From a virus (Duplodnaviria > Heunggongvirae > Uroviricota > Caudoviricetes): a DNA stretch of 64,000 nt. The position numbers and the translations under genes are program-made. Where the stretch lies: the IMG/VR virus record IMGVR_UViG_3300006143_000002; one strand, written 5' to 3'. Below the pieces are notes generated by a model. It ran no database searches. It worked only from the letters and a program-made list of their open reading frames with translations, and was not told the origin of the DNA. Shown here piece after piece: positions 15,661 to 59,715 of the stretch (positions are counted from its first letter, which is position 1; each line of letters opens with the position of its first letter).

Positions 15661-16103
15661 CTATTTATACCTCTTTCATTCAATAATCTATTTGTAGTTT
15701 CTTGTATTTGATTATTCACATCAAATCTATTATAAAATAAATTTGTAGATATATAAGTTACTAATGATTTTACAACAATTTCAGATATATGTTCTTCTAC
15801 ATAATTAGATACATCTTCTATTTTTTCAACAAGTACCTTATTCTGTAATAAATCATTAGTTATATTTTCAGAAACTTTTTCTTTTAACCCATCTATTACT
15901 TTTTTACCAAACTCTGTTAATTCAGTATATGAATTGTGACTCCAACCACTAACTTCTCTATAAAAACCTTTATCCATTTTATCATTTAAGTAACTTTTTA
16001 CTATTTCTGTTTTCTGCTCATCAGATAATGTTTCAATTAAATTTGCTAAACCCTTATCTAATTCATTTAATTGCTCTGTACTTAAATCTAATTCGACTTT
16101 CAT
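15657..16103 (-). CDS. hypothetical protein
   Basis: 148-aa acidic ORF. Confidence 0.35.
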   Translation of the reverse strand: MKVELDLSTEQLNELDKGLANLIETLSDEQKTEIVKSYLNDKMDKGFYREVSGWSHNSYTELTEFGKKVIDGLKEKVSENITNDLLQNKVLVEKIEDVSNYVEEHISEIVVKSLVTYISTNLFYNRFDVNNQIQETTNRLLNERGINR

Positions 16104-16555
16104 TATAATTCACCTAACTTTCTTTTTACCATTTCACTTAACTCTTTCCCATCAACCTGATTTCCAAATTGTTCTTTTGCTGCTCTCATTACAATACCCA
16201 TATCTTTTATTGAATGGGCATCTACTTGATTTATTATTTTTGCAACTTCTATTTCTAAATCTTCTATTGATATTTGTTCTGGTAAATAACCTTCTAATAC
16301 TTGTATTTCTCTTTCTGTTTGCATTATAAGGTCTTCTCTATTTGCTTTCTTAAATTGTTCTAATGCATCTTGTCTTTTCTTCTTTTCTTTCATTATAATA
16401 TTCTCAATATCAACATCATTTAATTCTTTTTGTATATCTTTTTCTTCTTGTAATACGGAAGCTCTAACACTTTGTATTGTATTCTTAACTATTATATCCT
16501 TATTTCTCATTGCTTCCTTTAAATCGTCTAATAATCTCTCTTTCAAGTTTCTCAT
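16103..16555 (-). CDS. yqeY: GatB/YqeY-domain protein
   Basis: 150 aa. Collinear similarity to bacterial YqeY: N-terminal ...AMRNKD..., KKKRQDALEQFKKANREDL, EIQVLEGYLPEQ, MGIVMRAAKEQFGNQVDGKELSEMVKRKL. Confidence 0.7.
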   Translation of the reverse strand: MRNLKERLLDDLKEAMRNKDIIVKNTIQSVRASVLQEEKDIQKELNDVDIENIIMKEKKKRQDALEQFKKANREDLIMQTEREIQVLEGYLPEQISIEDLEIEVAKIINQVDAHSIKDMGIVMRAAKEQFGNQVDGKELSEMVKRKLGEL

Positions 16556-17787: not shown

Positions 17788-17988
17788 CTAGTCTTCCTCC
17801 AAATATCTTTTATTATTCCTTAATGCTTCATTGTACCCTTGCCTTTTTAAGTCATCATATTTATTTCTTTTATGCTGATAACAATCTGGGCATAAACATT
17901 CTCCATCTAACCATATTCTATCACCATCCCTAACATCATTTTTACAATTAGGACATTTTACAATTCTATCTAACCAATCACTACTCAT
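17788..17988 (-). CDS. Zn-ribbon protein
   Basis: CPNCKN...CPDC. Confidence 0.3.
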   Translation of the reverse strand: MSSDWLDRIVKCPNCKNDVRDGDRIWLDGECLCPDCYQHKRNKYDDLKRQGYNEALRNNKRYLEED

Positions 17989-18208
17989 CTACACAATCTC
18001 CTTTCAGTAAATTAATAAATGTACTAATTGCATCAGCTAAATCTATATATCTATTATTCAGGAATTTACCAATAAGAGCCATTATATGACATATAACAAT
18101 TAAAATAAATGTAGGTATTGATATTATTATAAAAGCTAGTAATAATAAGATGATTATAATATTACACAATAAATTTATAAAATAATCTTTAAGACTTATA
18201 TTCTCCAT
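17981..18208 (-). CDS. small membrane protein
   Basis: 75 aa, long hydrophobic segment. Confidence 0.3.
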   Translation of the reverse strand: MENISLKDYFINLLCNIIIILLLLAFIIISIPTFILIVICHIMALIGKFLNNRYIDLADAISTFINLLKGDCVDE

Positions 18209-18361
18209 ATATTACTCCTTTTCTAATTAAAATGGTAGGATTACCATTAATATTTTGTATATCAATATTAATGGCATCTCCTTCTTTTAGATTCATTTGT
18301 TCCATTACATCCTGAGGTATTGCTAACCTATTTTTATTTCCAATTCTTCTAATTAGTAACA
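18189..18361 (-). CDS. AbrB/MazE/SpoVT-type swapped-hairpin DNA-binding protein (not in the ORF track)
   Basis: 57-aa ORF MLLIRRIGNKNRLAIPQDVMEQMNLKEGDAINIDIQ... matches the RRIG-N-x-RLxIPKE...GikeGDxV signature. Overlaps the start of the next ORF out of frame. Confidence 0.45.
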
Positions 18362-20818
18362 TTATACTCCTCCATTTGCATAATATTCATTTCTTAATGA
18401 AATAATATTATCTTTTTTCCTTAGTTCAACTATCTTACTGATATTTTCTTTACCAATATTAATATTTTCTTTTATATTTTCACAAGTATAACCTGTTTCT
18501 GTTCTAGTTTTTATTTGTTTTTGCATAATTATACTTTCACCATCTTCTGCTAGTTCACATTGTTTTAAATCAGATAATTTTACAAAATCATTATTTATAT
18601 TATCTAATATTTTCATATACTCAACACATTTATCATCATATTTATCTTTAATAAATTTATAAAAATAATTCGCAGTTGCATTATATAGTTTTCTTAATTC
18701 TACATTTTTACCATTCATAGTCATTTCATAAACAGTCCTCATAGACTTCCAAAAAGAATAATAACTAAATTTAAGCTTTGTCATAAATGTTCCACATTCA
18801 ATTACAACGCCTTCTATATCTGTGTCTATTAATTCATTTTGATTTTTATGTTGTTCATAAAATTCAGTTAATTGCCTATATGTATCAAATTTAATATATA
18901 CTTGCTTATAATCTGTATCTTTTAATTTTAACGATTTAGCAATTTGCATTAATCCATCATAAGGTATCTTCTCAAAATCTACTTTATTATGAATTATATC
19001 TAATAAGACAACTCTACTTTCTTTTTCATCTATAATATGAGGGTCATTTTCTAAATCTATAACTTCAAATGTCATTGACATATTATTATTTTTTAGAAAT
19101 ACTGTAATATTGTCTATTTGTTCTTCTGTAAATGTATTATAAAATAAATTTTTAAAATACATTGCATATTCTCCACAATTTGAAGATTTACTATGAAATT
19201 GTAAATTATCATTATAATAACTTAAAATGCCCAAGAAACCATTATATTTTTTATAAGCAACAACTTCTTCATCTGTATCAAATAATCTCTTTAAATTAAA
19301 TAATCTACATGATTCTTGTTCGTTTATATTAAAGAACTTTTCATAACCTCTTGCTACTATTTTATTATTTACAGTATCTATAAATAAACCTCTTGCTTTA
19401 ACAGTTTCCTTATCCCATTTATCTTTTTCAAATGCTTTACGTGTAAAGTTGAATGATGATATTCCACCTTCTAATACACTTTCTCTTATATTTCTATTAT
19501 TTCTTAATCTATCTACAATATTTTCTATATTTATTTCTTGTGTATTTACTATTTGTTGGTGTTCTTCCCAAGATGTATCCCTATATAAGTCATTTTTTAT
19601 ACTATGGAAAAATATACCCTTATTTGTTAATTCTGCTACTTTTAGATTTCCACCAAATTCAACACCATCCTCTAATGAGAATGATAAAGGTAAATCTCTC
19701 ATTGGTTTTTCTGGTGCAATATATCTATGTCCGTGTATTTGTATTATTGATTTATTTTTCATGTTTTCTGTATATGATTCGTCAATAGGGAATTTGAAAG
19801 CTCCAACACCATGTATCATTTGACTTGTTGATATTAAAGGTAAATTATTTGGGATAGTATTCAATCCCCCATGACATACAAAATATGTTTGTCCTTTAAA
19901 GTTTATATAAGCCATTTGTCCTAGTTTTCTATAAAACTTTCTCATACTTGATGGGTCTATTGATTTAATTTGTGGTAATGTAAAGTTCATAAATTCTTTA
20001 CTTTTAATCTCGCTATCCAGTTCATTTGCCCAATACCAAATAAATCTTTCATGATTTCCTTCTAATAAAAGTACATTACTTTTTTGACATATACTAATAA
20101 TAAATTCTAATACTTCCTTATTTTGTAGTCCTCTATCTAAATAGTCCCCTACAAATATATAAGCATCTTCATCATTTAAAAATTGATGTAAATTTTGAGA
20201 ATTTACTTCTTCTTGATATTCTGTATATGTTTGTTTTAGTATATATTCTTTTAATGGGTTAAAACAACCATGAATATCTCCTATAATATGTATTCTTTTA
20301 TACTCATTAAAATCAAATTCTTTATTACTAAATGTTTCCCAAAACTTATCTCTAGGAATATCTACCCAACCACTTGTCTTTTCTTGAGTTTCAAATCTTG
20401 CATACATTTTATCAATTACTTCATCAGGAACTCTTTTATAGGCATTTCTTTGATGATTTCTTTCTATACATACTTCTTTTGGTACATCTGTAAATGATAC
20501 TACATACTTTCTATATCTATATGATTCACATAATGAATTATATCTACTAAAATCTGTTGAACGGCTATGTGTTGCATCTATTATAGTAAAATCTCCATTT
20601 TTCATTCTTTTCTCTAATAATTCATATAATAATGACCATATATAAGATTCATTTTCTTGTGATATAGTTGCATCTGTTCCATTTTCTGTCAATATTGGTG
20701 CAGATGCCATCATTCTTATATTATCTGGGCTTATTGTATATTGCTCTAAACCATTTTCTTTTATCCAGGTTGATTTACCTGAACCTGGGCATCCCCTTAA
20801 AACCACTAAATTTCTCAT
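18362..20818 (-). CDS. pnkp: trifunctional polynucleotide kinase / metallophosphatase / RNA ligase (bacterial Pnkp-like)
   Basis: P-loop GCPGSGKST. Calcineurin-like motifs GDIHG, GDYLDRG, GNHE. C-terminal covalent nucleotidyltransferase motifs I KYNG, III TFEVID, IV EGVVIE, V KLK in order. Start set at MRNLVV after RBS GAGAGGTAGG. The ORF-track N-terminal extension overlaps the promoter. Confidence 0.75.
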   Translation of the reverse strand: MRNLVVLRGCPGSGKSTWIKENGLEQYTISPDNIRMMASAPILTENGTDATISQENESYIWSLLYELLEKRMKNGDFTIIDATHSRSTDFSRYNSLCESYRYRKYVVSFTDVPKEVCIERNHQRNAYKRVPDEVIDKMYARFETQEKTSGWVDIPRDKFWETFSNKEFDFNEYKRIHIIGDIHGCFNPLKEYILKQTYTEYQEEVNSQNLHQFLNDEDAYIFVGDYLDRGLQNKEVLEFIISICQKSNVLLLEGNHERFIWYWANELDSEIKSKEFMNFTLPQIKSIDPSSMRKFYRKLGQMAYINFKGQTYFVCHGGLNTIPNNLPLISTSQMIHGVGAFKFPIDESYTENMKNKSIIQIHGHRYIAPEKPMRDLPLSFSLEDGVEFGGNLKVAELTNKGIFFHSIKNDLYRDTSWEEHQQIVNTQEINIENIVDRLRNNRNIRESVLEGGISSFNFTRKAFEKDKWDKETVKARGLFIDTVNNKIVARGYEKFFNINEQESCRLFNLKRLFDTDEEVVAYKKYNGFLGILSYYNDNLQFHSKSSNCGEYAMYFKNLFYNTFTEEQIDNITVFLKNNNMSMTFEVIDLENDPHIIDEKESRVVLLDIIHNKVDFEKIPYDGLMQIAKSLKLKDTDYKQVYIKFDTYRQLTEFYEQHKNQNELIDTDIEGVVIECGTFMTKLKFSYYSFWKSMRTVYEMTMNGKNVELRKLYNATANYFYKFIKDKYDDKCVEYMKILDNINNDFVKLSDLKQCELAEDGESIIMQKQIKTRTETGYTCENIKENINIGKENISKIVELRKKDNIISLRNEYYANGGV

Positions 20819-20836
20819 AAAATTTCCTACCTCTCT

Positions 20837-20865
20837 GTTTTTGTTTATTATATAATAAGTTTTAA
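20837..20865 (-). promoter_or_regulatory. consensus promoter (extended family member), drives pnkp
   Basis: Reverse complement reads CTTGACATATTTTAAAACTTATTATATAAT. Confidence 0.6.
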
Positions 20866-20881
20866 AATATGTCAAGTATTT

Positions 20882-21112
20882 TTATAACTTTTTTAAATCT
20901 TCTATTAAATCAGTTCCATTATTACTATGAAATAGTGCATCTAAATCATGGTCAATACATATTTCTTTATTAGAATCAAATAACTCTGTATCTATATTAC
21001 TATTATCTAACCATGAATATAACTCACTTTCCAATAATGTTAATTTACTTCCTATTTCCTCTATCTCTGTAATCAAATCTAGTATTCTTTTTGGTATCTT
21101 CATTATCATCAC
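20882..21112 (-). CDS. hypothetical small protein
   Basis: 76-aa ORF. Confidence 0.25.
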   Translation of the reverse strand: MMIMKIPKRILDLITEIEEIGSKLTLLESELYSWLDNSNIDTELFDSNKEICIDHDLDALFHSNNGTDLIEDLKKL

Positions 21113-21114
21113 CT

Positions 21115-21747
21115 TTATTTATTTCTATCCTTATAAACATCTTCATACATCTTTCTCCACAAATTGTAACCATCTGCTTCTCCACCTCGTTTATAATGTC
21201 CCATCGTTGGTATCCAAATACAATCATAATCATATACTAATTCATAACTATTAGAAGTTATTATAATATGTATATCAATATTTTTTTCTTTACAATCATC
21301 TAATATCAACCTGAATAATGACCTATAAGTAAGCATTAAATCTATACTAACACCACTATCACAACCATCAATTAAAATATATCCTTCTTTAATATTACCA
21401 TCAACTAATTGTCTTACATAATCACCTATCTTTGGAACATTTATATCTACAAGTGTATCAAATACTCTTTGCCCCTCAGAACTTACTATATGTTTTGCTA
21501 ATGACTGCATATCACCTGATAATGTAAAACTATCTGCTTTATGTTTTCCTTCTTCATACACATTTACATTTATATATTTCTTTTTCTGCTCATCTAAATA
21601 ATCACAAATTTGGGTACAAGCATAAGTCTTTCCACTACCATTAGGTCCTGTTAAAACAGTTACCCCTGAATTTATTTCAATATCTTTTACATTATAACAT
21701 TTACCCTCTAATTTAAACTTTATCATTAAAAACTGCCTCCTATACAT
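21115..21747 (-). CDS. P-loop ATPase
   Basis: Walker A VLTGPNGSGKT and a Walker B-like ILIDGCDSG. Confidence 0.45.
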   Translation of the reverse strand: MYRRQFLMIKFKLEGKCYNVKDIEINSGVTVLTGPNGSGKTYACTQICDYLDEQKKKYINVNVYEEGKHKADSFTLSGDMQSLAKHIVSSEGQRVFDTLVDINVPKIGDYVRQLVDGNIKEGYILIDGCDSGVSIDLMLTYRSLFRLILDDCKEKNIDIHIIITSNSYELVYDYDCIWIPTMGHYKRGGEADGYNLWRKMYEDVYKDRNK

Positions 21748-23902: not shown

Positions 23903-23977
23903 TGGCAGGAGTGCTAGGATTTGAACCCAGACAAACAGTTTTGGAGACTGCTGTGCTACCATTAACACTACACTCCT
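23903..23977 (-). tRNA. tRNA-Trp (anticodon CCA)
   Basis: 75-nt cloverleaf folded by hand: 7-bp acceptor AGGAGTG/CACTCCT, D-stem GTGT/GCAC, anticodon stem GCAGT/ACTGT with loop CTCCAAA, T-arm CTGGG-TTCAAAT-CCTAG, discriminator G and encoded CCA. Confidence 0.65.
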
Positions 23978-23986
23978 ATATAGGGT

Positions 23987-24062
23987 TGGAGCTTCATATT
24001 GGATTCGAACCAATGGTCACAGATTTGCAATCTGTTGCCTTAACCAACTTGGCTAATGAAGC
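23987..24062 (-). tRNA. tRNA-Cys (anticodon GCA)
   Basis: 76 nt: acceptor GCTTCAT/ATGAAGC, anticodon stem ACAGA/TCTGT with loop TTGCAAA, T-arm ATTGG-TTCGAAT-CCAAT, encoded CCA. Confidence 0.65.
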
Positions 24063-24086: not shown

Positions 24087-24875
24087 CTACTCTTCTTCTG
24101 GTACTAATAAAAATTTATCTATAAAATCTCTATCTTTATTAAATAATGGTATTTCTGTATCACAGAATATTCCCTCATCTTTTCTATATACACAAAATCC
24201 TCTTTTCCATTTAGTTTCTAAATTATTCCAATTTATATTGTACTTTTCCATTAACATATCTTGTATATCACTTGTATTTTTCTTATCAAGTTGTTTTTGA
24301 CTAAACTTTGATTGTCCTAGTGATTGTATTGAGTTTCTTGATGCATCTTGTTGCCTCCATAAAAAGTAATTACATACATCTTCCTTTGGTATATTAAATG
24401 CTCTTGCATCAAACATTGCTATACCCATTTTCTTTTGCCATTTATTAAATAAGTCTAAATTCTCTGGTTCATCTGAATTTGCATAACCAGACCAAGCTAA
24501 TACCTTTTGTGTTACAAACTTATTAAAATACATTGTTGCTGCTGATGCTATTACTGAACATACCTTTTGTAATCTATAATCAAAATAACTATCAGTAGTT
24601 AATTTATCCCAGTCTGTTAATAATAAACTTATCTCATCAGACTGTGTATATGCTAACTTGCACCCTTGAACACTCAATATAAGATTTTCACAAACATATT
24701 GCATTACTTGTGATAGTATTTCATCAAATGGTTTATCTAAACCTCTTGTAAATGTGTGGAATGCTTTACCATCTATTCTTACTATAACAGGTGTTCTTTT
24801 TGTAAGTTTAACATCTGATACAGATTCATAATCTTTCATTCTATCACTTAATGTTTTTATCTTTGAATTTGACAT
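24087..24875 (-). CDS. thg1: Thg1-like protein (tRNA 3'-5' nucleotidyltransferase, TLP)
   Basis: Collinear matches to the Thg1 family: VIVRIDGKAFHTFT, KPFD, LAYTQSDEISLLL, FDARAFNIPKEDVCNYFLWRQQDASRNSI, KYNINWNNLETKWKRG. Confidence 0.8.
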   Translation of the reverse strand: MSNSKIKTLSDRMKDYESVSDVKLTKRTPVIVRIDGKAFHTFTRGLDKPFDEILSQVMQYVCENLILSVQGCKLAYTQSDEISLLLTDWDKLTTDSYFDYRLQKVCSVIASAATMYFNKFVTQKVLAWSGYANSDEPENLDLFNKWQKKMGIAMFDARAFNIPKEDVCNYFLWRQQDASRNSIQSLGQSKFSQKQLDKKNTSDIQDMLMEKYNINWNNLETKWKRGFCVYRKDEGIFCDTEIPLFNKDRDFIDKFLLVPEEE

Positions 24876-25057: not shown

Positions 25058-25861
25058 CTATATTGTAAAATCATAATTTAAAGCTTTCTCATTTATATCT
25101 ATCAACCATTTATTTATTTTATGATAATCTGGTGTCTTTTGTAATGTACTTTCATCATAGTATTGGTGTATCTCTTTATCTAATCTGTCAAACATATCAA
25201 ATATTTCTTCTAATGTATATTTTCCTGCTCTTATATCTAATAATAATTTTCTCTCTTCTTCTGGTCTGTAAGAACAATAATCATGTGTTAATAATATTTG
25301 TTTTGCACAATATAGTAATCTTATAGCATGATAAGCAAATTTAGTATCATAACCAAATTTTTCAACTAAATCTTGTCTGCCAGTTCCATTTTGCTTCTTT
25401 ATATCTAGTTTATACCTTTGTGACATTGCAAATCCACAAAACTTTTTATATATTTCCTTAGATAAAAATTCTTTTCTTATACTTCTTAACTCTTTTCCAA
25501 AATCATCTATATGAATTATATCTTCATCTCTACAAAATAGTATATCAATATTATTTGGTACACCTTGCATAGCGTCTCTAACAAATTTATTTATATGGCA
25601 TATTACTATATCAATATCTTCTTTTGTATTATGTTCTCCAAAATTTTTACCACCAGACTTATTATATTCATTTATAGATTTTAATCCTAAATAATATTCT
25701 TTTGGTGGAATACATACACCCTTATAATCAGTATCAGATGTTTCTACATTTGTTCCATATATAACTGAACCTGCTTTAGTTAATAATATTGTTCTGTCTT
25801 CCAACCACATCATATTATCTGGTAGAACATGTTCTATATCTTTAAAACTAACTTTTGCCAT
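25058..25861 (-). CDS. Pol-beta-superfamily nucleotidyltransferase (RlaP / PF10127-like, RNA-repair-associated type)
   Basis: GSVIYGTNVETSDTDYKGV matches the hG[GS]...SDxD nucleotidyltransferase signature. 267 aa. Adjacent to the Thg1-like gene. Confidence 0.5.
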   Translation of the reverse strand: MAKVSFKDIEHVLPDNMMWLEDRTILLTKAGSVIYGTNVETSDTDYKGVCIPPKEYYLGLKSINEYNKSGGKNFGEHNTKEDIDIVICHINKFVRDAMQGVPNNIDILFCRDEDIIHIDDFGKELRSIRKEFLSKEIYKKFCGFAMSQRYKLDIKKQNGTGRQDLVEKFGYDTKFAYHAIRLLYCAKQILLTHDYCSYRPEEERKLLLDIRAGKYTLEEIFDMFDRLDKEIHQYYDESTLQKTPDYHKINKWLIDINEKALNYDFTI

Positions 25862-29704: not shown

Positions 29705-31694
29705 TTAAAATAAACTATTATTTTTAGTATTTCCACCTATTAAATCTAAAAATGCTTGTTCTGTAATTATTTCAACACCATATTTTTGGGCATCTTTATT
29801 TTTGCTTGAACCACTATCTGGAGTATTTGTTATTAAATACTTACAAGACTTTATAGCACTTGATAGTTCATATCCATAACTTTCAATATACTTTTCAAAT
29901 GCACTTCTTTTCATTGTATTTAATGCACCTGTTACAGCAACTTTAATTATTTCTTTATTAGATACTTCTTTATACTTTATTCTATTTCCTATATATAATA
30001 TATTTTTTAATTTAGTTGTTTGATTTTCTATTATAGATTTAGTTGTAGCTTCTTTGACAATTTTTAATAACTTGTCACTTAGAATATTATCTATATATCC
30101 TAAACCTTTTATATCATTTATTAGCTGCTTTACTGTATTTGTTTCTTTTGCTAAATCTTTTGCAGTTTTATCACCTAATCTTGGGATATTTAAAGCAATT
30201 AAAGCTTTTTCTACATCTACCTTATTATTATATAGTTTTCCAAAAAATTCTACAGCCTTTCTATCTGTTATACTTAAATTAGATAAGTAAGCCCAGCTAT
30301 CAATTTTTTCTTTAGTTTCTAAACAATATAAATCTGATATACTCATGATTCTAAATTTTACTAAATATTGTTCCATAAGTGTCCAAGCCATACCATCTGT
30401 TTCGCCTATTGTTTCACACCATTGTCTTAAATCACTATATTCTATATTTGGACAATCTTTAAATGCACATTTTAAATCTACACCATCCCAAATTAAAGTA
30501 TGTCCACATATTGAGCATTTTTCTGGTAAATCTACATCTGCTGCTTCTAATGTGTCCATGTGCTTTGGAATAACCTCACCACTTCTGCATACAGAAATTG
30601 TAGCACCAACACCTAAACCATTATCTAATAAATATTGAGCATTATTTCCAGTTACATTATGCACTACTGCACCAGACAATTCTATTGGCTCAATTTCTAA
30701 TACTGGTATATATCTTTGTGTTCTTGATAATTCCCATTTAATATTATTTATTGTAGTTTCTTTTTCTTCTGCTGCAAATTTAAAAGCACACTCATCATAA
30801 ATATATGATTTTGCATCTTCATGATATATAACTTCTGTATTTGAGATTACAACACCATCTAATTCGTATCCCATCGTATATTTAAAACTTTCAAATGTAT
30901 CTTTCATATATTCTTCAAATTTATCTTTTCTATCTAATATAGTGGTAACAGTTTCAATAACATTCTTAAAATTCCACTTCAACCAATCTTTAATGTCTTC
31001 TTTGGCTGGATTTCTTCTACTACATACACTATCTGTAACAATATTATTCATATCCCTTTCTTGTCCTGTTATTTTATAAGTTATAAAATCAATTAATTTT
31101 ATATCATCTATTGAATAATCTTTAGAGTTTATCCAACCAGCACATAAATTTCTTGCATTTTTAGCTTCGGGATATTTATATTTAACCTTTTCCCAGTTTT
31201 CAACAGATATTTCTAATTCTCCTCTTACACCACCTGTAAAATTCTTATCTTCTATTTCATTACCTACAATTATTCTCGCCTTATCTGTAATATCTTTTCC
31301 CTCTTGACCATTACCTCTTGTAACTGCTTTAATCAATTTACCACCTTCATAATAAAATACACCAGTTAAACCATCTAGTTTAGGAGATAAAGATACAAAC
31401 CCATTTTTAAATCTTTCAGGAACTTCATCATAAGTTCTACATTTATCAAGACTTTTTACTAATTGATACTTATGTTTTACTTTATGCCCTGTTTGTTTGT
31501 AACCCCATCCGAGGAACTTGCAATATTTTAGAAGTAGGATTTAATAATCTTAGTCTATCAACCAAATTATCAAACTCTACATCTGTCAATGTTTGTGTAC
31601 CATCTGTATAATACTTCTCAGACTGTTCCTTTATAATTCTTTCTAATTTTTCAATTTCTTCTTTTTCATAATCACCGAATAACACAATAGTCAC
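29705..31694 (-). CDS. ligA: NAD+-dependent DNA ligase (LigA), split into two ORFs by a 1-nt frame shift at a CAAACAAACA repeat (~31486..31500)
   Basis: Upstream 70-aa ORF carries domain Ia (YYTDGTQTLTDVEFDNL...PTSKILQVPRMG). After a +1 shift the frame continues HKVKHKYQLVKSLDK...KLDG (adenylation motif I)...TRGNGQEGKDIT, then a Cys4 Zn finger CSICGHT..C and a C-terminal BRCT-like domain. Total ~663 aa. Confidence 0.65.
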
Positions 31695-32565
31695 ACTCCT
31701 TATTAAATATTCCTTTTTTTATATGATGTCTTATGTGCATAGCCAATTTCATACTCTTACCAAAATTTGGATTAGATTTACCTTTCATAGAACCATCTCT
31801 AATACCAGATTTAAGCTCTGCTTTATATGTATTCCACTTTTCTGATTTTATCATGCCATTTTTAGTAGATATAGATGTTTTTTCTCTTTCCAGTACATTA
31901 CTAAATCTTTCTTTCTGTGCATTTGATAAATTTTGTTTCATACTATCTGTAAAATGTTTACCATACATCGGATTTTTATCTCCTGATAAATCAGATTTTT
32001 TATGCCTTCCCTCCTTGTATGCCAATTTTAAAGATATACTTCTTTTATTTCTTTCACTTTCTGTTTGTATTCTTCCTTTATTATACTTACCCATATCTTT
32101 ACTCTTCAATGTTTCTGATATTCTTTTTCTGGTTTCTTCACTGTGATAATATCCATATAACTCTATTTTTCTTTTCATAGATTCTTTTAACTTATTTCTT
32201 GTTTCTTGTGGTATTTTTCTTTCTTTTGCACTTAAAGACATTTTTTCTTTTGTTGATAGAGTATGTTCATCTTTTGAACCTTTTCCACCATGTTGAATAT
32301 TATAACAATATTCATCTTCTAGAACTTCTTTGGTTATGATTTCATTTTCAAATTTCAAAGCTTCATCATGACTTTCAAAAAATTTTATGATTTCTCTACT
32401 AAAACTTTCTTTCCCATACTTTCTAACTGCATTTAAAAAATGATACCCAGAACCAATATAACCATCATTTATGTTATTTGTACTATGAACACCATAGTAA
32501 TAATAAGGTGTTCCAATCCTTCTTGTGATATAAACAAAATGATACTTTTTCATATAATATTTCAC
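31672..32565 (-). CDS. GIY-YIG homing-endonuclease-like protein
   Basis: N-terminus YHFVYITRRIGTPYYYYGVHST...GYIGSG has GIY-x10-YIG spacing. K/S-rich C-terminus. Lies directly upstream of ligA. Confidence 0.5.
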   Translation of the reverse strand: MKYYMKKYHFVYITRRIGTPYYYYGVHSTNNINDGYIGSGYHFLNAVRKYGKESFSREIIKFFESHDEALKFENEIITKEVLEDEYCYNIQHGGKGSKDEHTLSTKEKMSLSAKERKIPQETRNKLKESMKRKIELYGYYHSEETRKRISETLKSKDMGKYNKGRIQTESERNKRSISLKLAYKEGRHKKSDLSGDKNPMYGKHFTDSMKQNLSNAQKERFSNVLEREKTSISTKNGMIKSEKWNTYKAELKSGIRDGSMKGKSNPNFGKSMKLAMHIRHHIKKGIFNKECDYCVIR

Positions 32566-32584
32566 CTCATTAATATTTTACTAA
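32565..32584 (-). promoter_or_regulatory. conserved late-gene motif (AGTAAAATATTAATGAGGTG)
   Basis: Here the GAGG of the motif doubles as the RBS, 9 nt before the ATG of the GIY-YIG gene. Confidence 0.4.
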
Positions 32585-32614
32585 ATATGTTACTAATGAA
32601 GTACCCTGATAATA

Positions 32615-32920
32615 TCATACACTATCAATATAACCATTACCAAATCTATCTCTTACATCATCTATTATATCTTCAAACCTTACCACATTATGTCTTTTTA
32701 GTAATTTTGAAAATGAGATACTTTTTTCTGTACTAACTATAGCACTCCAGAAATAATGTAATATTCCTTCTGGGTTTCTTTGTTGCATTCTCATTCTAGT
32801 ATATCTTGCACCTTGTGACATTTCAGGTATATTATTTTCTGTACCATATTGTATTGCTGGTTCAAATATGGTTTCATTAAAATAATTTAACATTTCTTCT
32901 TTTCTTTCTTGTTCTAACAT
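32615..32920 (-). CDS. hypothetical protein
   Basis: 101-aa ORF. Confidence 0.3.
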   Translation of the reverse strand: MLEQERKEEMLNYFNETIFEPAIQYGTENNIPEMSQGARYTRMRMQQRNPEGILHYFWSAIVSTEKSISFSKLLKRHNVVRFEDIIDDVRDRFGNGYIDSV

Positions 32921-34767: not shown

Positions 34768-34859
34768 TGGCGACATAGCTAGGATTTGAACCTAGGAACC
34801 CATTTCTGGATTGCCAGTTTTCAAGACTGGTGCATTAAACCAAACTCTGCCACTATGCC
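34768..34859 (-). tRNA. tRNA-Ser (anticodon TGA), type II
   Basis: 92 nt: acceptor GGCATAG/CTATGTC, 3-bp D-stem with long loop, anticodon stem CCAGT/ACTGG with loop CTTGAAA, long variable arm, T-arm CTAGG-TTCAAAT-CCTAG, encoded CCA. Confidence 0.6.
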
Positions 34860-34872
34860 CTATTTTTATTTA

Positions 34873-34944
34873 CAGCCATTGTTGGATTCGAACCAACCTC
34901 TCCTTACATTAGTAAAGTAATTTTTCCTACTAAACTAAATGACT
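34873..34944 (-). tRNA. tRNA-like gene, non-canonical (good acceptor and T-arm, aberrant D/anticodon region)
   Basis: Acceptor AGTCATT/AATGGCT, T-arm GTTGG-TTCGAAT-CCAAC. The central region folds as CTTTAC-TAAT-GTAAGG rather than a 7-nt anticodon loop. Confidence 0.3.
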
Positions 34945-35032
34945 ATATTAAAAAGATGCTTGATTTCTGCAGCTCTCAGCATCTTTTTGCCTAATCTCTA
35001 TATAGTGAATTCTGCCTATATATTTTAGACTT

Positions 35033-35103
35033 GCCTTTGAAATGGATTCGAACCATTGACTCCCTGTCGCATACAGGGGATTTTCCCACTAAACTATCAA
35101 AGG
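35033..35103 (-). tRNA. tRNA-like gene, anticodon loop TATGCGA (possible TGC/Ala, with A at position 33)
   Basis: Acceptor CCTTTGA/TCAAAGG, anticodon stem CCCTG/CAGGG, T-arm AATGG-TTCGAAT-CCATT. The D-arm is irregular. Confidence 0.35.
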
Positions 35104-35197
35104 GTATAATGTAAAGTAGGAGTAAATTATATTGACGTCAAATATAAATTTTATATCTAATGCGAGATACTATATTAACCTACTTTATTTTTGCATA

Positions 35198-35259
35198 TCA
35201 CCTGTTATGGATTCGAACCACTTTCTCCTATACATATATTTTCATACATGCAGCAGGTG
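35198..35259 (-). tRNA. tRNA-like fragment (T-arm and acceptor only, ~62 nt)
   Basis: TTCGAAT T-loop with a 6-bp acceptor. Too short for a D-arm and anticodon arm, so probably a pseudo-tRNA. Confidence 0.2.
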
Positions 35260-35264
35260 TTATT

Positions 35265-35339
35265 TGGTCGCAGGGGTTGGATTTGAACCAACATCGTCCG
35301 AAATATGGGCTCAGCTATGCTATATTACACCACCCTGCT
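35265..35339 (-). tRNA. tRNA-like gene, possible CAT anticodon, non-canonical
   Basis: Acceptor (A)GCAGGG/CCCTGC(G) with a 1:72 mismatch, T-arm GTTGG-TTCAAAT-CCAAC, encoded CCA. Anticodon stem CTGAG/TTCGG has wobble pairs and loop CCCATAT. D-arm is poor. Confidence 0.3.
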
Positions 35340-35343
35340 ATAT

Positions 35344-35419
35344 TGGGTGCGAGGGCTGGATTCGAACCAGCGAACTCTAGCTTATGAGGCTAGTGAGATG
35401 CCAACTTCTCCACCTCGCA
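35344..35419 (-). tRNA. tRNA-Met/Ile2 (anticodon CAT)
   Basis: 76-nt canonical cloverleaf: acceptor TGCGAGG/CCTCGCA, D-stem GAGA/TCTC, anticodon stem CTAGC/GCTAG with loop CTCATAA, T-arm GCTGG-TTCGAAT-CCAGC, discriminator C and CCA. Confidence 0.65.
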
Positions 35420-35454
35420 GTATTAAATTATTAGCATTACCTAATTAAAGGCTG

Positions 35455-35526
35455 GTCGAGTACATTGGATTCAAACCAATTCCATCATCCACCTGTTGGA
35501 TGCCGTGCACCATACACCATACTCGA
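35455..35526 (-). tRNA. tRNA-like gene, anticodon loop AACAGGT (non-canonical, no U33)
   Basis: Perfect 7-bp acceptor TCGAGTA/TACTCGA, D-stem GTGT/GCAC, anticodon stem CATCC/GGATG, T-arm ATTGG-TTTGAAT-CCAAT with one extra nucleotide before the acceptor. Confidence 0.35.
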
Positions 35527-35700
35527 TATATATATATACAAATGATTTAAGGTATATCATCAACCACACATCGAGCATTATTTATTTTTCATAGACTAAA
35601 CTATGATTAATCTATTTCATCTCATGCTCTATTTTGTTCACCTTTGAGAACCCTATGAAATAGATTATATATTACTTATACATAATATATAACATCTTTA

Positions 35701-35793
35701 TGGCGATAAGGGAGGGATTCGAACCCTCGATACATAATTAAATGTATGTCTCCTTAGCAGAGAGATGGTTTAAACCTACTCACCCACCTTACC
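35701..35793 (-). tRNA. tRNA-Ser (anticodon GCT), type II
   Basis: 93 nt: acceptor GGTAAGG/CCTTATC, anticodon stem TCTCT/GGAGA with loop CTGCTAA, long variable-arm hairpin ATACAT...ATGTAT, T-arm GAGGG-TTCGAAT-CCCTC, discriminator G and CCA. Confidence 0.6.
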
Positions 35794-36358: not shown

Positions 36359-37903
36359 TTATTTAATTTTTTTATAAATTCTACTAAATGCCTCATATTC
36401 ACTTAAACATACTGGCTTAAAATTATTAACATCTACACCAACATTATATGAATTTTTAATCTTTTTTATAATATGGCTATTGCTATGAATATGCCCATAT
36501 AGATGAGTGCTACCATATTCTTTTTGTTTCCATGAAGATATTGGAAAATGAAATAATATGTATTTCTTATTATTGACTGTTATTTCTTTATAATCAACTA
36601 TCTCCTCAAATAAAGACTGGTCAAAATCTTTTCCAATACATATATTATCATGATTTCCTAATATAAGTATCTTTCTACCTCGTAATCTCTTAACAATTTC
36701 ATTAGTTTCTTTACTATTTCTAAATGATAAATCACCTAATATGAACACTAAATCATCATCATGTTTTACTGTACTATTCCATCTTCTTATAAGTTCTTCA
36801 TCATGAATTTTTATATATTCCTTATTAACCTCCATTTTATATTTATCCCAAAGGTCATCTGGTATATTATAAATTTCTTCATTTGTCAAACCTTCATCTT
36901 TTAATTTATTTACTATTGCTTGATGTTGGGTTATTCCACATAACTCCCATCTTTTTGGTTCAAAGTCTAATATATTTTCATGTCCAAAATGTAAGTCAGA
37001 TGTAAAAAATATTTTATCTGAGGTTGGTAACGATAGACCGCTTTTTCTTCTCCATTTATTTCTTTTTGGTGTAAAAATATTTCTTAAATATTTTTCAAAT
37101 ATTTTAACAGAGATTTTACTTAAAAATTCTTTAACCATGTCTTCACTATTTACTTCATTAAAAAACATATTTCTATGTGACTTTAATTGATTTATACTAT
37201 CATTTGCCAAATCTCTTGCTTCTTCTAATGAATATTTGCTTAATTTAGCATTAGTTAAAACTTCAATATTATCTTCCATATAATTATGGGAATTCATAGA
37301 TTTTTTAAAATCAAATGTTTCTATATATTTTTCTGCAAATAAATTTAATCTTAGTATATGATGTAATTGTTTTCCATCATATCCATATTTTTCTATCTTA
37401 TCTCTCAACCCTTCATAAGGATGTTCTAATGCTTCTAATTTATTTAAAGCCATACCATAAGTACAAACTATTAATTTTACTGGATTTGCACTAGAAATCA
37501 TATCAGCATTATCTAATATTTCTAACATATCATTTTTAAATAATGGGTTTAATATTCTAAATTCTGTATGTAATATTTCAAGATATTTTATATTTTGTTT
37601 TCTAAATAATTCTGTTATTAACCTAATATCTTTAACATCTATATGTTCATTATTATCTAATATTATTGTTTCAGATATATATTCATCCTTATTTATTAAG
37701 TTTTCAAAGGTAGGTAATACAATAGCTACTGTATCTATATCAGATTTATACTCATCTGTATATAAATCTAAATTATAATTTTGACTTCCTTGTAAGGCTA
37801 CCATTAAAAACTCATATTGTGGTCTCAATCTTTTTAATTCATTTACATGGTACTTTATACCTTTAAATATATTATTTTTTCTTTGTTTATCTATATCTGC
37901 CAT
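36359..37903 (-). CDS. Pol-beta nucleotidyltransferase (RlaP-like) fused to a calcineurin-like metallophosphoesterase
   Basis: N-terminal ALQGSQNYNLDLYTDEYKSDIDTVAIV nucleotidyltransferase signature. C-terminal metallophosphoesterase motifs SDLHFGHEN, ILGDLSF, GNHDN, GHIH. Lies directly upstream of the tRNA-array promoter. Confidence 0.55.
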   Translation of the reverse strand: MADIDKQRKNNIFKGIKYHVNELKRLRPQYEFLMVALQGSQNYNLDLYTDEYKSDIDTVAIVLPTFENLINKDEYISETIILDNNEHIDVKDIRLITELFRKQNIKYLEILHTEFRILNPLFKNDMLEILDNADMISSANPVKLIVCTYGMALNKLEALEHPYEGLRDKIEKYGYDGKQLHHILRLNLFAEKYIETFDFKKSMNSHNYMEDNIEVLTNAKLSKYSLEEARDLANDSINQLKSHRNMFFNEVNSEDMVKEFLSKISVKIFEKYLRNIFTPKRNKWRRKSGLSLPTSDKIFFTSDLHFGHENILDFEPKRWELCGITQHQAIVNKLKDEGLTNEEIYNIPDDLWDKYKMEVNKEYIKIHDEELIRRWNSTVKHDDDLVFILGDLSFRNSKETNEIVKRLRGRKILILGNHDNICIGKDFDQSLFEEIVDYKEITVNNKKYILFHFPISSWKQKEYGSTHLYGHIHSNSHIIKKIKNSYNVGVDVNNFKPVCLSEYEAFSRIYKKIK

Positions 37904-37905
37904 TT

Positions 37906-38496
37906 TTAATCACCTTCTTGCTTAAATAATGTATCTATTAATTCATAATAATAATCAGATGCATCTTTCATTCTTCTAAAAGAATTCATTATAATTCGTT
38001 GTTCTTCTAATGAAATTAAAGGAATAGTAATATTTGATATATCTGCTACAGTAAGTCTTTTTTGTTTTTTATTCTTAGACAATCTATGTATTTTCTCAAA
38101 CATCTTTGTAGATGTAAGTACTTGATATACATAATCCTCATAAACTATATCTCTATTTACTCTTACAATTATATTTGAACTATCATATACATCGTTTAAA
38201 AAATAAGGTTTTATAAAAGGGTTTGATTTAACAATAAGTGTACAGTATCTATTTGGAAATACTGGAAATACTATGTCTGTTGCTTTCACCATACAATCTT
38301 TACGCTTCTTACTAAAGTTATAAGTTTTAACAGGTGTATCTATTTTTCCACCTATAAATGTTGTAAATAAATCATTATATGAAATCAATCGTGCCTCTGT
38401 TCCAGTATCTGATTCCAATATCTGCTGTCCTTTAAATACATCTGCAATATCACCTAATCTTACATGTGAAATAGTATCAAAGTCTATTTTAATCAC
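37906..38496 (-). CDS. half-size type I R-M specificity-subunit (HsdS)-like protein with a single TRD
   Basis: N-terminal VRLGDIADVFKGQ (TRD start), and C-terminal LISLEEQRIIMNSF resembling the conserved PLPPLEEQ helix of HsdS. 196 aa. Confidence 0.45.
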   Translation of the reverse strand: MIKIDFDTISHVRLGDIADVFKGQQILESDTGTEARLISYNDLFTTFIGGKIDTPVKTYNFSKKRKDCMVKATDIVFPVFPNRYCTLIVKSNPFIKPYFLNDVYDSSNIIVRVNRDIVYEDYVYQVLTSTKMFEKIHRLSKNKKQKRLTVADISNITIPLISLEEQRIIMNSFRRMKDASDYYYELIDTLFKQEGD

Positions 38497-38820: not shown

Positions 38821-39498
38821 CTATATATTTATTTTAACATCTTGTGCTTTTAATTTATCTAATGCCTCTTGAAAATAATCCATAGTTAAACCTGTTTCTG
38901 TATCTACATGTATTAAATTATCTCCATACTTATATAAATCAAATATATCATCATCTATAATTAGAAAAGGTATATTTTTAAATGTAAACATTCCACTTCC
39001 TTTAAAATGATAATCTTCTATTTCATCTTCTCTCCAAGATATATAATTTTCTTTTGGTATTCTATTAGTCCTACCACCTATATAGGCTTTAACTTTATTT
39101 ATCTTAAAAACTGTATTCCATTCTGTTGGTGTCAATTCATATCTTCTTGTAGTTGTTAATATAATTGTATATGGTGCAACATCATATAACTTATTTAAAA
39201 ATTCAACTGCTTCCTTTTGAAAACACCATTGTTGCATAAAATTTCTATATTCAAAATCTTTATTTTCATCTTCTTTATGAACTAAAGCATTATGGATTTT
39301 TATTATATAATTACTACCTGCAGTTACACCATCCATATCTAAATATAGTATAAACTTATATTTTTCATCTGTTTCTATTTTATATGGCTCTAATGATTTC
39401 ACTAATTCATCTGGTGTATATCTACTTAATAATTTCTTAAAATCTTTCTGTAATTCTTCATTTGATAAATCCTTAAATTTCATTTTACCAACCTTCAC
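38821..39498 (-). CDS. HAD-superfamily phosphatase
   Basis: Motif I ILYLDMDGVTA (hhhhDxDGV), motif II IILTTT, late DDD. Confidence 0.45.
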   Translation of the reverse strand: MKVGKMKFKDLSNEELQKDFKKLLSRYTPDELVKSLEPYKIETDEKYKFILYLDMDGVTAGSNYIIKIHNALVHKEDENKDFEYRNFMQQWCFQKEAVEFLNKLYDVAPYTIILTTTRRYELTPTEWNTVFKINKVKAYIGGRTNRIPKENYISWREDEIEDYHFKGSGMFTFKNIPFLIIDDDIFDLYKYGDNLIHVDTETGLTMDYFQEALDKLKAQDVKINI

Positions 39499-47803: not shown

Positions 47804-48550
47804 TTAAAATACTTTTTTAAAATCACTTCCATCATATAATAAATATGACTTATCCCCATATTTAGAACCACCTCTATATGTAGAATGTGTATCTGTAAAG
47901 AATAATCTAAAACCTTCTTCTTTTCTTTCTGTTATTGTTTCTACAGGAGAATGCCCTACTATTTGATTTGGTATTAACATTTTCTCTCTTAATGCAGATT
48001 GAAACAACTCTCTTTTATCTGTCCATACAGGAGAACTACATAAATCATTACCACCTCTCATGTATGAACAATATTTATAATATACTAAATTATTTAATTT
48101 ATCTTCTTGTAACTTATCTATAACTGGTTTCCAATCTCCATAAGTATCCAACACTTGACATATATAATCATTTGTAAATCCTGCGTGAGAACATACATAA
48201 GTAGTATTTTCATCTATTTCAAATTCTGTATATAAATCAAATAAATTTATATTATTTTCTAATAATCCATTTACTTCCTCTTCTCTTTCATACTGATGTC
48301 CTGAACAAGGAAATTGTAAATAACTCAATTCATGATTTCCAATACAAAAAGTATATTTATCTGGATTAGATTTCTTTAATTCTATAACCTTATTTAATGT
48401 TTGTATAGATTCAACATTAGTTGTATTCCAATCATCTACATAATCTCCTAAAAAGATTACTCTGTCTAAATTATATTCTTTATCTAATCTTCTTACATCA
48501 TCAAATATATATTGATGATTATGTACATCCCCTACAAATAAAACCTTCAT
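47804..48550 (-). CDS. calcineurin-like metallophosphoesterase
   Basis: MKVLFVGDVHNH, FLGDYVDDW, IGNHE. Confidence 0.55.
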   Translation of the reverse strand: MKVLFVGDVHNHQYIFDDVRRLDKEYNLDRVIFLGDYVDDWNTTNVESIQTLNKVIELKKSNPDKYTFCIGNHELSYLQFPCSGHQYEREEEVNGLLENNINLFDLYTEFEIDENTTYVCSHAGFTNDYICQVLDTYGDWKPVIDKLQEDKLNNLVYYKYCSYMRGGNDLCSSPVWTDKRELFQSALREKMLIPNQIVGHSPVETITERKEEGFRLFFTDTHSTYRGGSKYGDKSYLLYDGSDFKKVF

Positions 48551-59714: not shown

Positions 59715-59715
59715 A

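Follow-up and report, generated by a model that had tools for sequence, protein, structure and literature searches.

Known systems with which the enzyme reported here can be compared are bacterial Pnkp, the T4 pair Pnkp and Rnl1, and fungal Trl1. The ligase of Clostridium thermocellum Pnkp (CthPnkp), a member of the Rnl4 clade, needs Hen1, whereas T4 Rnl1 and the Trl1 ligase domain (Trl1-LIG) each have a C-domain of their own in cis and require no Hen1-like activator for sealing. In phage T4, Pnkp and Rnl1 mend tRNA-Lys cut by PrrC (cited in PMC10946426; PMC7824862), and the T4 pair has also been used in yeast trl1-delta complementation (PMC10946426). The CthPnkp phosphoesterase cuts the P-O3' bond first, which leaves a 2'-phosphate, and the monoesterase reaction that follows is slow with nucleotides as substrate; His189 is needed for the monoesterase activity, and H189D is a pure diesterase (PMC2190708). 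The name Rnl6 is used in the literature for a fungal clade to which kinetoplastid Trl1 may also belong, and a literature search for it returned only fungal Trl1 papers and ligase papers citing them. The literature search (Burroughs and Aravind 2016, NAR 44:8525, not covered) yielded no biochemically characterised fusion of a kinase, a metallophosphatase and an Rnl1/Trl1 ligase, and nothing specific on a phage counter-defence role for a kinase-metallophosphatase-ligase fusion.

The window analysed here, a stretch of 64,000 nucleotides of viral DNA, encodes such a fusion. A preliminary description had placed the gene in a phage, and its surroundings agree: a T4-type portal, a holin, an endolysin and a tail-sheath-stabiliser-like gene lie around it, and related contigs measure 196-241 kb. 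A protein 99% identical to the window enzyme (P0001) is encoded on a 217-kb phage contig, and a Megablast search with the 10-30 kb part of the window found no match among isolated phage genomes. The gene and its immediate surroundings comprise the following features:

18362..20818, minus strand: gene for a predicted trifunctional kinase-phosphatase-ligase of 818 aa (ORF, three Pfam domains, PHROG 8238)
20847..20875, minus strand: candidate sigma-70-type promoter, TTGACA-17-TATAAT, 29 nt upstream of the ATG (putative function)
20324..20818, minus strand: P-loop polynucleotide 5'-kinase domain, residues 1-165 (GSGKST 12-17, D32, R35)
19529..20311, minus strand: binuclear metallophosphoesterase (2',3'-phosphatase) domain, residues 170-430 (GDIHG, GDYLDRG, GNHE, H316, H364)
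18365..19501, minus strand: ATP-dependent RNA ligase domain, residues 440-818, with an Rnl1-like adenylyltransferase (K524) and a Trl1-LIG-like C-domain
18419..18646, minus strand: insertion in the ligase C-domain, residues about 725-800, roughly 70-95 aa, its length varying by clade member
18189..18362, minus strand: AbrB/MazE-like gene, 57 aa (weak PF04014 match)

The ORF list gives a single minus-strand frame at 18362..20875, with its stop codon at 18362-18364. The true start is the ATG at 20818 (MRNLVVLRGCPGSGKST), because the starts of all homologues coincide with it in the alignment, a ribosome-binding site (AGAGGTAGG, read directly from the sequence) lies upstream, and the TTG at 20875 is the -35 box of the promoter. 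The 837-aa TTG-initiated ORF from 20875 was rejected on this last ground; TTGACA-17-TATAAT at 20875..20847 is the sole 12/12 match to the sigma-70 consensus within 17900..21200. The limits first proposed for the gene, 18362-20818, are exact, and only the strand (minus) had been left out. Downstream, the ATG of the AbrB/MazE-like gene shares 1 nt with the stop codon of the ligase gene (TAATG), and its ribosome-binding site, GGAGGAG, lies within the last ligase codons.

Three Pfam domains confirm the order kinase, metallophosphatase, adenylyltransferase given in the preliminary description. The kinase matches AAA_33 (residues 4-143, 1.3e-22) and, among structures, the CthPnkp kinase 4gp7 (1.3e-7) and T4 Pnk 1ly1 (4e-5). 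The phosphatase matches Metallophos (residues 175-368, 1e-15) and the CthPnkp phosphatase 4j6o (4.9e-8). The NCBIfam model bacter_Pnkp (TIGR04075) scores 104 bits where its cutoff is 750, and does so only through the healing half (profile positions 9-325). These profile matches identify the healing half as homologous to bacterial Pnkp, with the CthPnkp kinase and phosphatase as its closest structures, so that the likeness to C. thermocellum Pnkp proposed earlier holds for these two domains (4gp7, 4j6o, TIGR04075 positions 9-325). The equivalent of CthPnkp His189 is H183, a His in 80 of 81 homologues; its retention suggests that the phosphoesterase is probably a full diesterase-monoesterase.

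The same comparison fails for the ligase domain. RNA_lig_T4_1 (PF09511) covers residues 474-687 at 9e-33 over its whole profile (1-227; cutoff 28.3 bits). Searched against the PDB, the ligase-domain profile matches the fungal Trl1-LIG 9qw7 at 1.4e-26 over positions 12-302 of 307, the C-domain included, followed by Trl1-LIG 6n0v, 6n67 and 6n0t (about 2e-15 to 3e-14) and T4 Rnl1 (3e-6), and it matches no Pnkp ligase chain in the PDB even at E<=10. Nor does the ligase half of TIGR04075 find a match in the window protein, the whole-protein score being 104 against 750 bits. The HMM alignments span 241 residues for T4 Rnl1 and 296-299 for Trl1. The window ligase contains a C-terminal domain homologous to the Trl1-LIG CTD (profile match), which is helical and ends in a conserved IISLRNEY; the Rnl1-specific C-domain, responsible for anticodon-loop specificity on tRNA, is not alignable with the window protein. 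In the alignment with Chaetomium Trl1-LIG, K524 of the KYNG motif corresponds to the motif I lysine K148, bearing out the proposed lysine nucleophile, while E585 corresponds to E218 (motif III), E669/G670 to E300/G301 (IV) and K681/K683 to K323/K325 (V). The ATP is contacted in Trl1-LIG by R99, K120, F121, K148, N150, E218, E300, K323 and K325 (PMC6379707). R99, K120, F121 and N150 align to the invariant R476, K494, F495 and N526, and every counterpart of the contact set in the window ligase is invariant. Profile and alignment results thus assign the sealing half to the Rnl1/Rnl6 branch (T4 Rnl1, fungal Trl1-LIG), closest to Trl1-LIG, the C-domain included. The AF2 model has a pLDDT of 91.8, from an input alignment whose rows are without the SPbeta and Staphylococcus phage proteins. 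It renders the C-domain insertion as two beta-hairpins (AF2 secondary structure E323-348); the insertion is confined to the closest jumbo-phage clade, and family members of about 720 aa do not have it (alignment columns 840-920).

This assignment changes the question that had made the locus of interest. The gene had been read as encoding an entire Pnkp of the bacterial type, an enzyme that ordinarily acts together with Hen1, and the lack of a visible methyltransferase was read as either a Hen1-independent sealing mode or a partner elsewhere in the genome. The absence itself stands: no Hen1 or methyltransferase Pfam family occurs among the window ORFs or within 10 kb beyond either end. Motif I does hold a lysine as well, and by the refuting conditions set for it the preliminary description stands. 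The premise was wrong, since the ligase is of the Rnl1/Trl1 and not the Pnkp/Rnl4 type. With its C-domain in cis, such a ligase needs no Hen1, so the puzzle of the missing partner disappears, and a 2'-O-methylation step is not expected for the window enzyme. A Pnkp of the Rnl4 type after all, either in a novel Hen1-independent form or with a Hen1 or other methyltransferase elsewhere, would share the domain order of CthPnkp and would account for the kinase and phosphatase being most similar to CthPnkp structures (TIGR04075 positions 9-325). Moreover, the search for partners took in about 84 kb, and the genome, at roughly 217 kb, offers about 133 kb more. The fold and profile results for the ligase contradict this reading, which we regard as extremely improbable.

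Conservation was assessed in 81 homologues of 38-51% identity. All the motifs singled out in the preliminary description (GCPGSGKST, GDIHG, GDYLDRG, GNHE, KYNG, FEVID, EGVVIE, KLK) are present and conserved in this set. Kinase residues K15, D32 and R35, phosphatase residues D181, D225, D228, R229, N255, H256, H316 and H364, and ligase residues K524, N526, G527, E585, E669, G670, K681 and K683 are invariant (81/81), as are the metal and phosphate ligands of the phosphoesterase (DxH, GDxxDR, GNHE). The catalytic residues of all three domains are also kept in 22 diverse full-length sequences, including those of SPbeta-like and Staphylococcus phages. In these alignments, the conservation of the motifs lies far beyond chance.

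On the evidence of sequence, predicted fold and gene neighbourhood, the jumbo phage most probably encodes an autonomous heal-and-seal enzyme that repairs RNA, with three predicted activities and a putative tRNA substrate and anti-defence role. The N-terminal P-loop kinase would phosphorylate the 5'-OH, and the central Mn-type binuclear phosphoesterase would open and remove the cyclic phosphate to leave a 3'-OH. K524 of the C-terminal ligase would then be adenylylated by ATP and the AMP passed to the 5'-phosphate, after which attack by the 3'-OH would seal the break. Further genes of the window bear on this proposal:

23903..24062, minus strand: tRNA-Trp(CCA) and tRNA-Cys(GCA) (ARAGORN), between the Thg1-like and sigma-factor genes
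24087..24875, minus strand: Thg1-like 3'-5' nucleotidyltransferase (PF04446; phrog_4717 7.9e-83)
25058..25861, minus strand: RlaP, an RNA-ligase-associated Pol-beta nucleotidyltransferase (PF10127; phrog_388 2.7e-65)
62381..63229: second Thg1-like gene

The RlaP protein, for whose family biochemistry is available (PMC12776372), is probably the partner that restores 3'-end nucleotides, and the Thg1-like protein is probably a 5'-end tRNA repair partner. Both would act alongside the window enzyme and the phage tRNAs to replace nucleotides lost from either end. Of 80 viral loci, 11 have a Thg1-like gene no more than 10 kb from the fusion gene, and 5 have a linked RlaP gene; with linkage in a minority of loci, the two are optional partners rather than system components. 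In one small prophage, the fusion gene occurs by itself, and none of the adjacent genes is a repair gene. A YqeY gene is found near the fusion gene, and HAD_SAK_2 elsewhere in the window. HAD_SAK, YqeY, the AbrB-like gene and a small ATPase were rejected as parts of the system, as was a 248-aa metallophosphoesterase, each having linkage to the fusion gene in 0/80 viral loci. Altogether, the RNA-repair toolkit of the phage holds the fusion enzyme, RlaP, a second RlaP-like NTase-phosphoesterase, two Thg1-like genes, HAD_SAK and 8 tRNAs. Such a rich set fits tRNA-targeting host defences as a major pressure on jumbo phages.

If its main role were other than tRNA repair, the protein might process DNA ends in replication or recombination, act on phage transcripts as a processing enzyme, or moonlight in virion assembly, as T4 gp63 does in tail-fibre attachment. 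Pnkp-type kinases and phosphatases, T4 Pnkp among them, also act on DNA ends in vitro; T4 Rnl1 (gp63) also carries the annotation 'tail fiber attachment catalyst', and the window ligase domain is matched by phrog_562 at 2.9e-23. However, all three catalytic centres are strictly conserved, more than a role in structure alone would call for, the surroundings consist of RNA-repair and tRNA genes rather than tail genes, and the phage encodes its own NAD-dependent DNA ligase. Such a role is considered highly improbable.

A variant of the heal-and-seal explanation, with the same function, concerns the chemistry of the junction. As in Trl1, a 3'-OH,2'-PO4 end might be handed to an Rnl6-like ligase that prefers or requires the 2'-PO4, and the resulting 2'-PO4 junction would then need removal by a Tpt1/KptA-type enzyme encoded by the host or elsewhere. 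The homology to Trl1-LIG runs through the C-domain, and the homologous CthPnkp phosphoesterase makes the 2'-phosphate first, with a slow second step (PMC2190708). The residues described as enforcing 2'-PO4 recognition in fungi, His227, Arg334 and Arg337 (PMC11404444, PMC12440814), align to H594, K691 and R694 in the HMM alignment, and these positions are conserved (H594 in 81/81 homologues, K691 and R694 each in 80/81). T4 Rnl1 has no requirement for a 2'-PO4 and is without a His at the position of H594 in the HMM alignment. On the other side, Lys replaces the first Arg of the fungal set, H183 is retained in 80/81 and so points to a probable full diesterase-monoesterase, and no KptA/Tpt1 gene was found nearby. 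A tblastn search with E. coli KptA, run on the window and its flanks as well as on 80 related viral loci, found no homologue (chance-level E>2 only), and the Tpt1 family (PF01885) is absent from Pfam scans and precomputed annotations of the window and flanks. The His-Arg-Arg triad is itself a weak predictor, since plant Trl1 is without these arginines yet needs a 2'-PO4, and the fungal LIG shows a preference for it and not an absolute requirement (PMC12440814). Overall, chemistry of this kind seems rather unlikely. The fuller combination, in which the Pnkp-type phosphoesterase would open the cyclic phosphate at P-O3' to give 3'-OH,2'-PO4 and the ligase would be a true phage/bacterial Rnl6 member with a 2'-phosphate pocket, sealing Trl1-style and leaving a 2'-PO4 junction, is quite doubtful. 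If true, it would provide a natural substrate for the widespread bacterial Tpt1/KptA enzymes and would point to phages as the source of eukaryotic tRNA ligase. To our knowledge, bacterial Tpt1/KptA enzymes are widely distributed without a known substrate.

The kinase-phosphatase-ligase fusion is widespread in phages and already catalogued, though under inconsistent labels ('RNA ligase', 'polynucleotide kinase', 'hypothetical protein'). The window protein matches PHROG 8238 'RNA ligase' at 1.1e-201 (protein residues 1-747, profile 1-731 of 737). A search at E<=1e-10 gave 4,905 homologues, the best 120 of which all have the kinase-phosphatase-ligase architecture, and among isolated phages 97 records align over 80% or more of the protein. 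The present analysis corrects the classification of this family. The family is very large, and its ligase domain is homologous to Trl1-LIG, the C-domain included, which is relevant to where eukaryotic tRNA ligase came from and to whether bacteria and phages have 2'-phosphate-dependent sealing.

Among known systems, the nearest are the PHROG 8238 members of Staphylococcus Twortvirinae (phage Alsa_2 WNM50693.1, vB_Sau_Clo6), SPbeta-like Bacillus phages (SPbetaL2 WIT27135.1) and Alicyclobacillus phage KKP_3916. They share 38-42% identity over residues 1 to about 700, the three Pfam domains with their order and the same invariant catalytic residues, but are without the roughly 70-95-aa C-domain insertion that the window protein has in common with its nearest relatives from jumbo phages. 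The bacterial systems Pnkp-Hen1 (Clostridium thermocellum) and Pnkp1-Rnl-Hen1 (Capnocytophaga gingivalis) have a homologous P-loop kinase and a lambda-phosphatase-like metallophosphoesterase in the same order. The T4 pair Pnkp and Rnl1 consists of two separate proteins, with a DxDxT (HAD) phosphatase, whereas the window enzyme is a single chain with a metallophosphoesterase. Baculovirus AcNPV ORF86 Pnk/Pnl is likewise a viral single-chain RNA ligase, 5'-kinase and 3'-phosphatase, although its domain order, ligase-kinase-phosphatase, is unlike that of the window protein and its phosphatase is of the DxDxT type. Finally, fungal Trl1 (Rnl6; Chaetomium thermophilum 6N0T/6N67, Candida glabrata 9QW7) is arranged LIG-KIN-CPD and heals 3' ends with a 2H cyclic phosphodiesterase in tRNA splicing. 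The window protein reverses this order (KIN-phosphoesterase-LIG), employs a binuclear metallophosphoesterase and a kinase nearer to those of CthPnkp and T4 Pnk, and occurs in a context of viral RNA repair.

Judged from its sequence, the fusion protein is a putative autonomous, trifunctional phage RNA heal-and-seal enzyme that joins a Pnkp-like healing half to a Trl1/Rnl1-like ligase. Its gene lies in one long open reading frame on the minus strand (18362..20875). The start codon is the ATG at 20818, where every homologue in the alignment has its MRxLV N-terminus, and a AGAGGTAGG ribosome-binding site lies just upstream. A TTG at 20875 was rejected as start codon because its three bases open the -35 box of TTGACA-17-TATAAT (20875..20847), a predicted promoter and the sole perfect 12/12 sigma-70 consensus within 17900..21200. 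Given this start and a stop codon at 18362-18364, the limits assigned in the preliminary description (18362-20818) are exact. The stop codon shares one base with the ATG that starts an AbrB/MazE-like gene of 57 aa (18189..18362, minus strand; SpoVT-AbrB fold, weak PF04014). This gene is translationally coupled to the ligase gene via the TAATG overlap, and its GGAGGAG ribosome-binding site sits within the final codons of the ligase (…NGGV). The residues of the NGGV end are kept in the closest clade, possibly owing to the encoded GGAGGAG site.

Pfam domains of the fusion protein
Residues 4-143: AAA_33 P-loop kinase, E 1.3e-22
Residues 175-368: Metallophos, E 1e-15
Residues 474-687: RNA_lig_T4_1, E 9e-33, entire profile covered

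The feature first described is real and correctly delimited, and all the motifs quoted for it are found. The P-loop lysine and the kinase Asp/Arg are fully or almost fully conserved in 81 viral-contig homologues (38-51% identity), as are the phosphoesterase residues that bind metal and phosphate and motifs I, III, IV and V of the ligase. A 22-sequence alignment to which isolated SPbeta-like and Staphylococcus phages contribute proteins shows the same conservation. By homology with T4 Pnkp/Rnl1, CthPnkp and Trl1, the kinase (K15, D32, R35) would phosphorylate the 5'-OH, the binuclear phosphoesterase (D181, H183, D225, D228, R229, N255, H256, H316, H364) would hydrolyse the 2',3'-cyclic phosphate, and the ligase would seal the break through K524-AMP and then AppRNA.

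The protein belongs to a large, already catalogued and apparently uncharacterised phage family. PHROG 8238 ("RNA ligase") matches it along its full length (E 1e-201, positions 1-731 of the 737 in the profile), and at least 4,905 homologues at E<=1e-10 occur among 8,000 candidates scored from a collection of 5.8 billion proteins, with identical Pfam architecture in all of the best 120 of the 4,905. Among isolated phages, 97 records span 80% or more of its length. SPbeta-like Bacillus phages (42% identity, labelled "hypothetical protein") are among the best matches listed, together with Staphylococcus Twortvirinae (38%, labelled "RNA ligase" or "polynucleotide kinase") and a phage of Alicyclobacillus. 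No biochemical study of a kinase-phosphoesterase-ligase fusion was found in the literature searched; an earlier bioinformatic description may exist (Burroughs and Aravind, 2016).

The likeness to Clostridium thermocellum Pnkp originally proposed is confined to the healing half. There, the kinase and phosphatase find their best PDB sequence matches in the corresponding domains of CthPnkp (4gp7 and 4j6o), and residues 3-321 align with positions 9-325 of the 851 in TIGR04075 (the NCBIfam bacter_Pnkp equivalog), at 104 bits vs a cutoff of 750. For the ligase, all PDB chains were searched with a profile built from 12 sequences of residues 440-818. The profile matches the Trl1 ligases of Candida glabrata (9qw7, 1.4e-26) and Chaetomium (6n0v/6n67/6n0t, ~2e-15 to 3e-14) and the Trl1 ligase domain 9r3w (6.5e-15), in alignments that cover nearly all of LIG, C-domain included, through the conserved "IIKLRNEF". 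T4 Rnl1 (2c5u, 9do4, 5tt6) is matched at ~3e-6 to 3e-5, in its case just along the N-terminal half, and no Pnkp ligase chain appears, even at E<=10. Structural comparison gives the following ranking.

Structural matches of the ligase domain (score; residues aligned)
CthTrl1-LIG (6n0t): 25.4; 296
C. glabrata Trl1-LIG (9qw7): 24.2; 299
T4 Rnl1 (9do4): 23.5; 241
MthRnl (5d1o): 17.2; 256
CthPnkp-C/Hen1-N (4drf): 7.6 (8% identity); 186
Rnl of Pnkp1/Rnl/Hen1 (4xrp_B): 6.9; 182

Ligase clades are set by the module joined to the adenylyltransferase core, with Rnl1 represented by T4, Rnl4 by Pnkp-C/Hen1-N and Rnl6 by Trl1-LIG (Banerjee et al., PMC6379707). By this criterion the domain falls in the Rnl1/Rnl6 branch, nearest Rnl6, and not in Rnl4. 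Its C-domain carries a clade-specific insertion of ~70-95 aa (residues ~725-800; window 18419..18646, minus strand), modelled as two beta-hairpins, present only in jumbo-phage relatives (P0002-P0032) and missing from the ~720-aa family members.

This assignment removes the interest once attached to a Pnkp lacking Hen1, which had placed the ligase in the wrong clade. Rnl4 relies on Hen1, whose N-domain switches on Pnkp ligase activity according to the title of Wang et al. (2012, cited in PMC6379707), whereas the C-domain that Trl1 needs for end joining sits in the same chain (PMC11404444); a missing Hen1 is thus what one would expect and no puzzle. No methyltransferase is annotated by precomputed Pfam within 10 kb either side of the gene in homologue P0001 (99% identical, on the 217-kb contig NODE_15). 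Together with Pfam searches of the other window ORFs of at least about 110 aa and neighbouring-gene annotation for 10 kb past each window end, this covers about 84 kb, in which neither Hen1 nor Tpt1 nor any SAM-dependent methyltransferase family turned up. Among methylase-related matches there is a single one, to a type-I R-M specificity-like (Methylase_S) domain (37906..38496, minus strand), not a catalytic methyltransferase; its 196-aa protein lies near the HAD_SAK_2 gene, with no recognisable methyltransferase adjoining. The prophage-borne homologue P0091 lies among replication genes with zero repair neighbours, which argues that the fusion protein works alone.

In the window, the gene's surroundings are an RNA-repair neighbourhood, unlike the Pnkp-Hen1 kind.

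RNA-related genes of the window
16103..16555: YqeY-domain gene
23903..24062: tRNA-Cys and tRNA-Trp
24087..24875, minus: Thg1-like gene (phrog_4717, 7.9e-83)
25058..25861, minus: RlaP (PF10127)
34768..35793, minus: cluster of six tRNA genes
36359..37903, minus: RlaP-like nucleotidyltransferase fused to phosphoesterase, 514 aa (PHROG matches only)
38821..39498, minus: HAD_SAK_2 "Swiss-army-knife" RNA-repair phosphatase (8.9e-15)
62381..63229, minus: second Thg1-like gene (phrog_4717, 1.1e-20)

RlaP adds 1 or 2 nucleotides onto damaged RNA 3' ends (PMC12776372) and Thg1-type enzymes restore 5' nucleotides; with phage tRNAs, both are described as jumbo-phage counter-measures against host attack on tRNA (PMC7824862). 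Of 80 related loci in IMG/VR, 11 have a Thg1-like gene and five have RlaP no more than 10 kb from the fusion gene, and the remaining window neighbours are linked to it in none; the linkage recurs but is optional. From the T4 precedent and this neighbourhood, the substrate is most plausibly tRNA cleaved by a host anticodon nuclease, and a three-step heal-and-seal enzyme acting on such tRNA is a likely overall reading.

The two Thg1-like (3'-5' nucleotidyltransferase) genes are divergent paralogues within one phage; Thg1 is reportedly only sporadic in jumbo phages (PMC7824862). The 514-aa protein has no Pfam match; its N-terminal part matches phrog_388 (1.5e-8, RlaP-like nucleotidyltransferase) and its C-terminal part phrog_547 (1.7e-44, phosphoesterase). 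It lies beside the tRNA cluster and is a candidate for another RNA-end-repair enzyme, of fused type. This cluster includes two long-arm tRNA-Ser genes and an aberrant "tRNA-???" (34872..34945; two-base anticodon "aa"). Upstream of the fusion gene, beyond one or two short ORFs, lies a small P-loop ATPase of about 203-210 aa (21115..21747, minus; NPHP3_N, weak AAA_14 and fainter ATPase-family hints), without PHROG match and not kept beside fusion homologues elsewhere. A separate 248-aa calcineurin-like metallophosphoesterase (47804..48550, minus; Metallophos 4e-12) adjoins a T4 gp15-like tail-sheath-stabiliser gene and is linked to the fusion gene at none of the 80 loci. In 29705..32920 (minus), an intron or homing-endonuclease insertion seems to have split ligA. 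The ORF for the NAD-dependent DNA ligase (29705..31336) begins at adenylation-domain profile position 65, just downstream of a GIY-YIG/NUMOD3 homing endonuclease gene (31672..32565). Gene calls for the same stretch of the 99%-identical contig NODE_15 give a NUMOD3 gene of 253 aa and a BRCT gene of 286 aa, suggestive of a homing-endonuclease polymorphism. An 81-aa gene at about 59708..59953 (minus), located from a near-identical contig (L092 13277..13522), matches Tad8 (PF25189), which we take to be a Thoeris anti-defence family.

Sealing might depend on a 2'-phosphate, as in Trl1. In fungal Trl1-LIG, His227, Arg334 and Arg337 hold a sulfate mimicking the terminal 2'-phosphate and enforce the 3'-OH,2'-PO4 end preference (PMC6379707, PMC11404444, PMC12440814). 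In an HMM alignment whose numbering agrees with the published R99, K120, K148, E218, E300, K323 and K325, this triad corresponds to H594, K691 and R694, kept in 81, 80 and 80 of the 81 homologues. Such sealing is chemically conceivable, since the homologous CthPnkp phosphoesterase cuts the P-O3' bond first, leaving a 2'-phosphate, and with nucleotide substrates is slow to finish the dephosphorylation (PMC2190708). However, H183, the equivalent of CthPnkp H189 needed for monoesterase activity, is kept, Lys replaces Arg334, and neither the window and its flanks nor any of the 80 related loci has a Tpt1/KptA gene. The triad is also an unreliable predictor, because plant Trl1 without the arginines still requires a 2'-PO4 (PMC12440814). 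Dependence on a 2'-phosphate is improbable.

The locus keeps some value in this 2'-phosphate question and because a huge family of phage ligases is Rnl6-like. At the first triad position, where the fusion protein has H594, T4 Rnl1 (its sequence confirmed against the T4 genome) has no His in the profile alignment, in which it cannot be aligned past residue 197. The ATP and catalytic-metal contacts of Trl1-LIG (R99, K120, F121, K148, N150, E218, E300, K323, K325) all have invariant counterparts in the phage enzyme.
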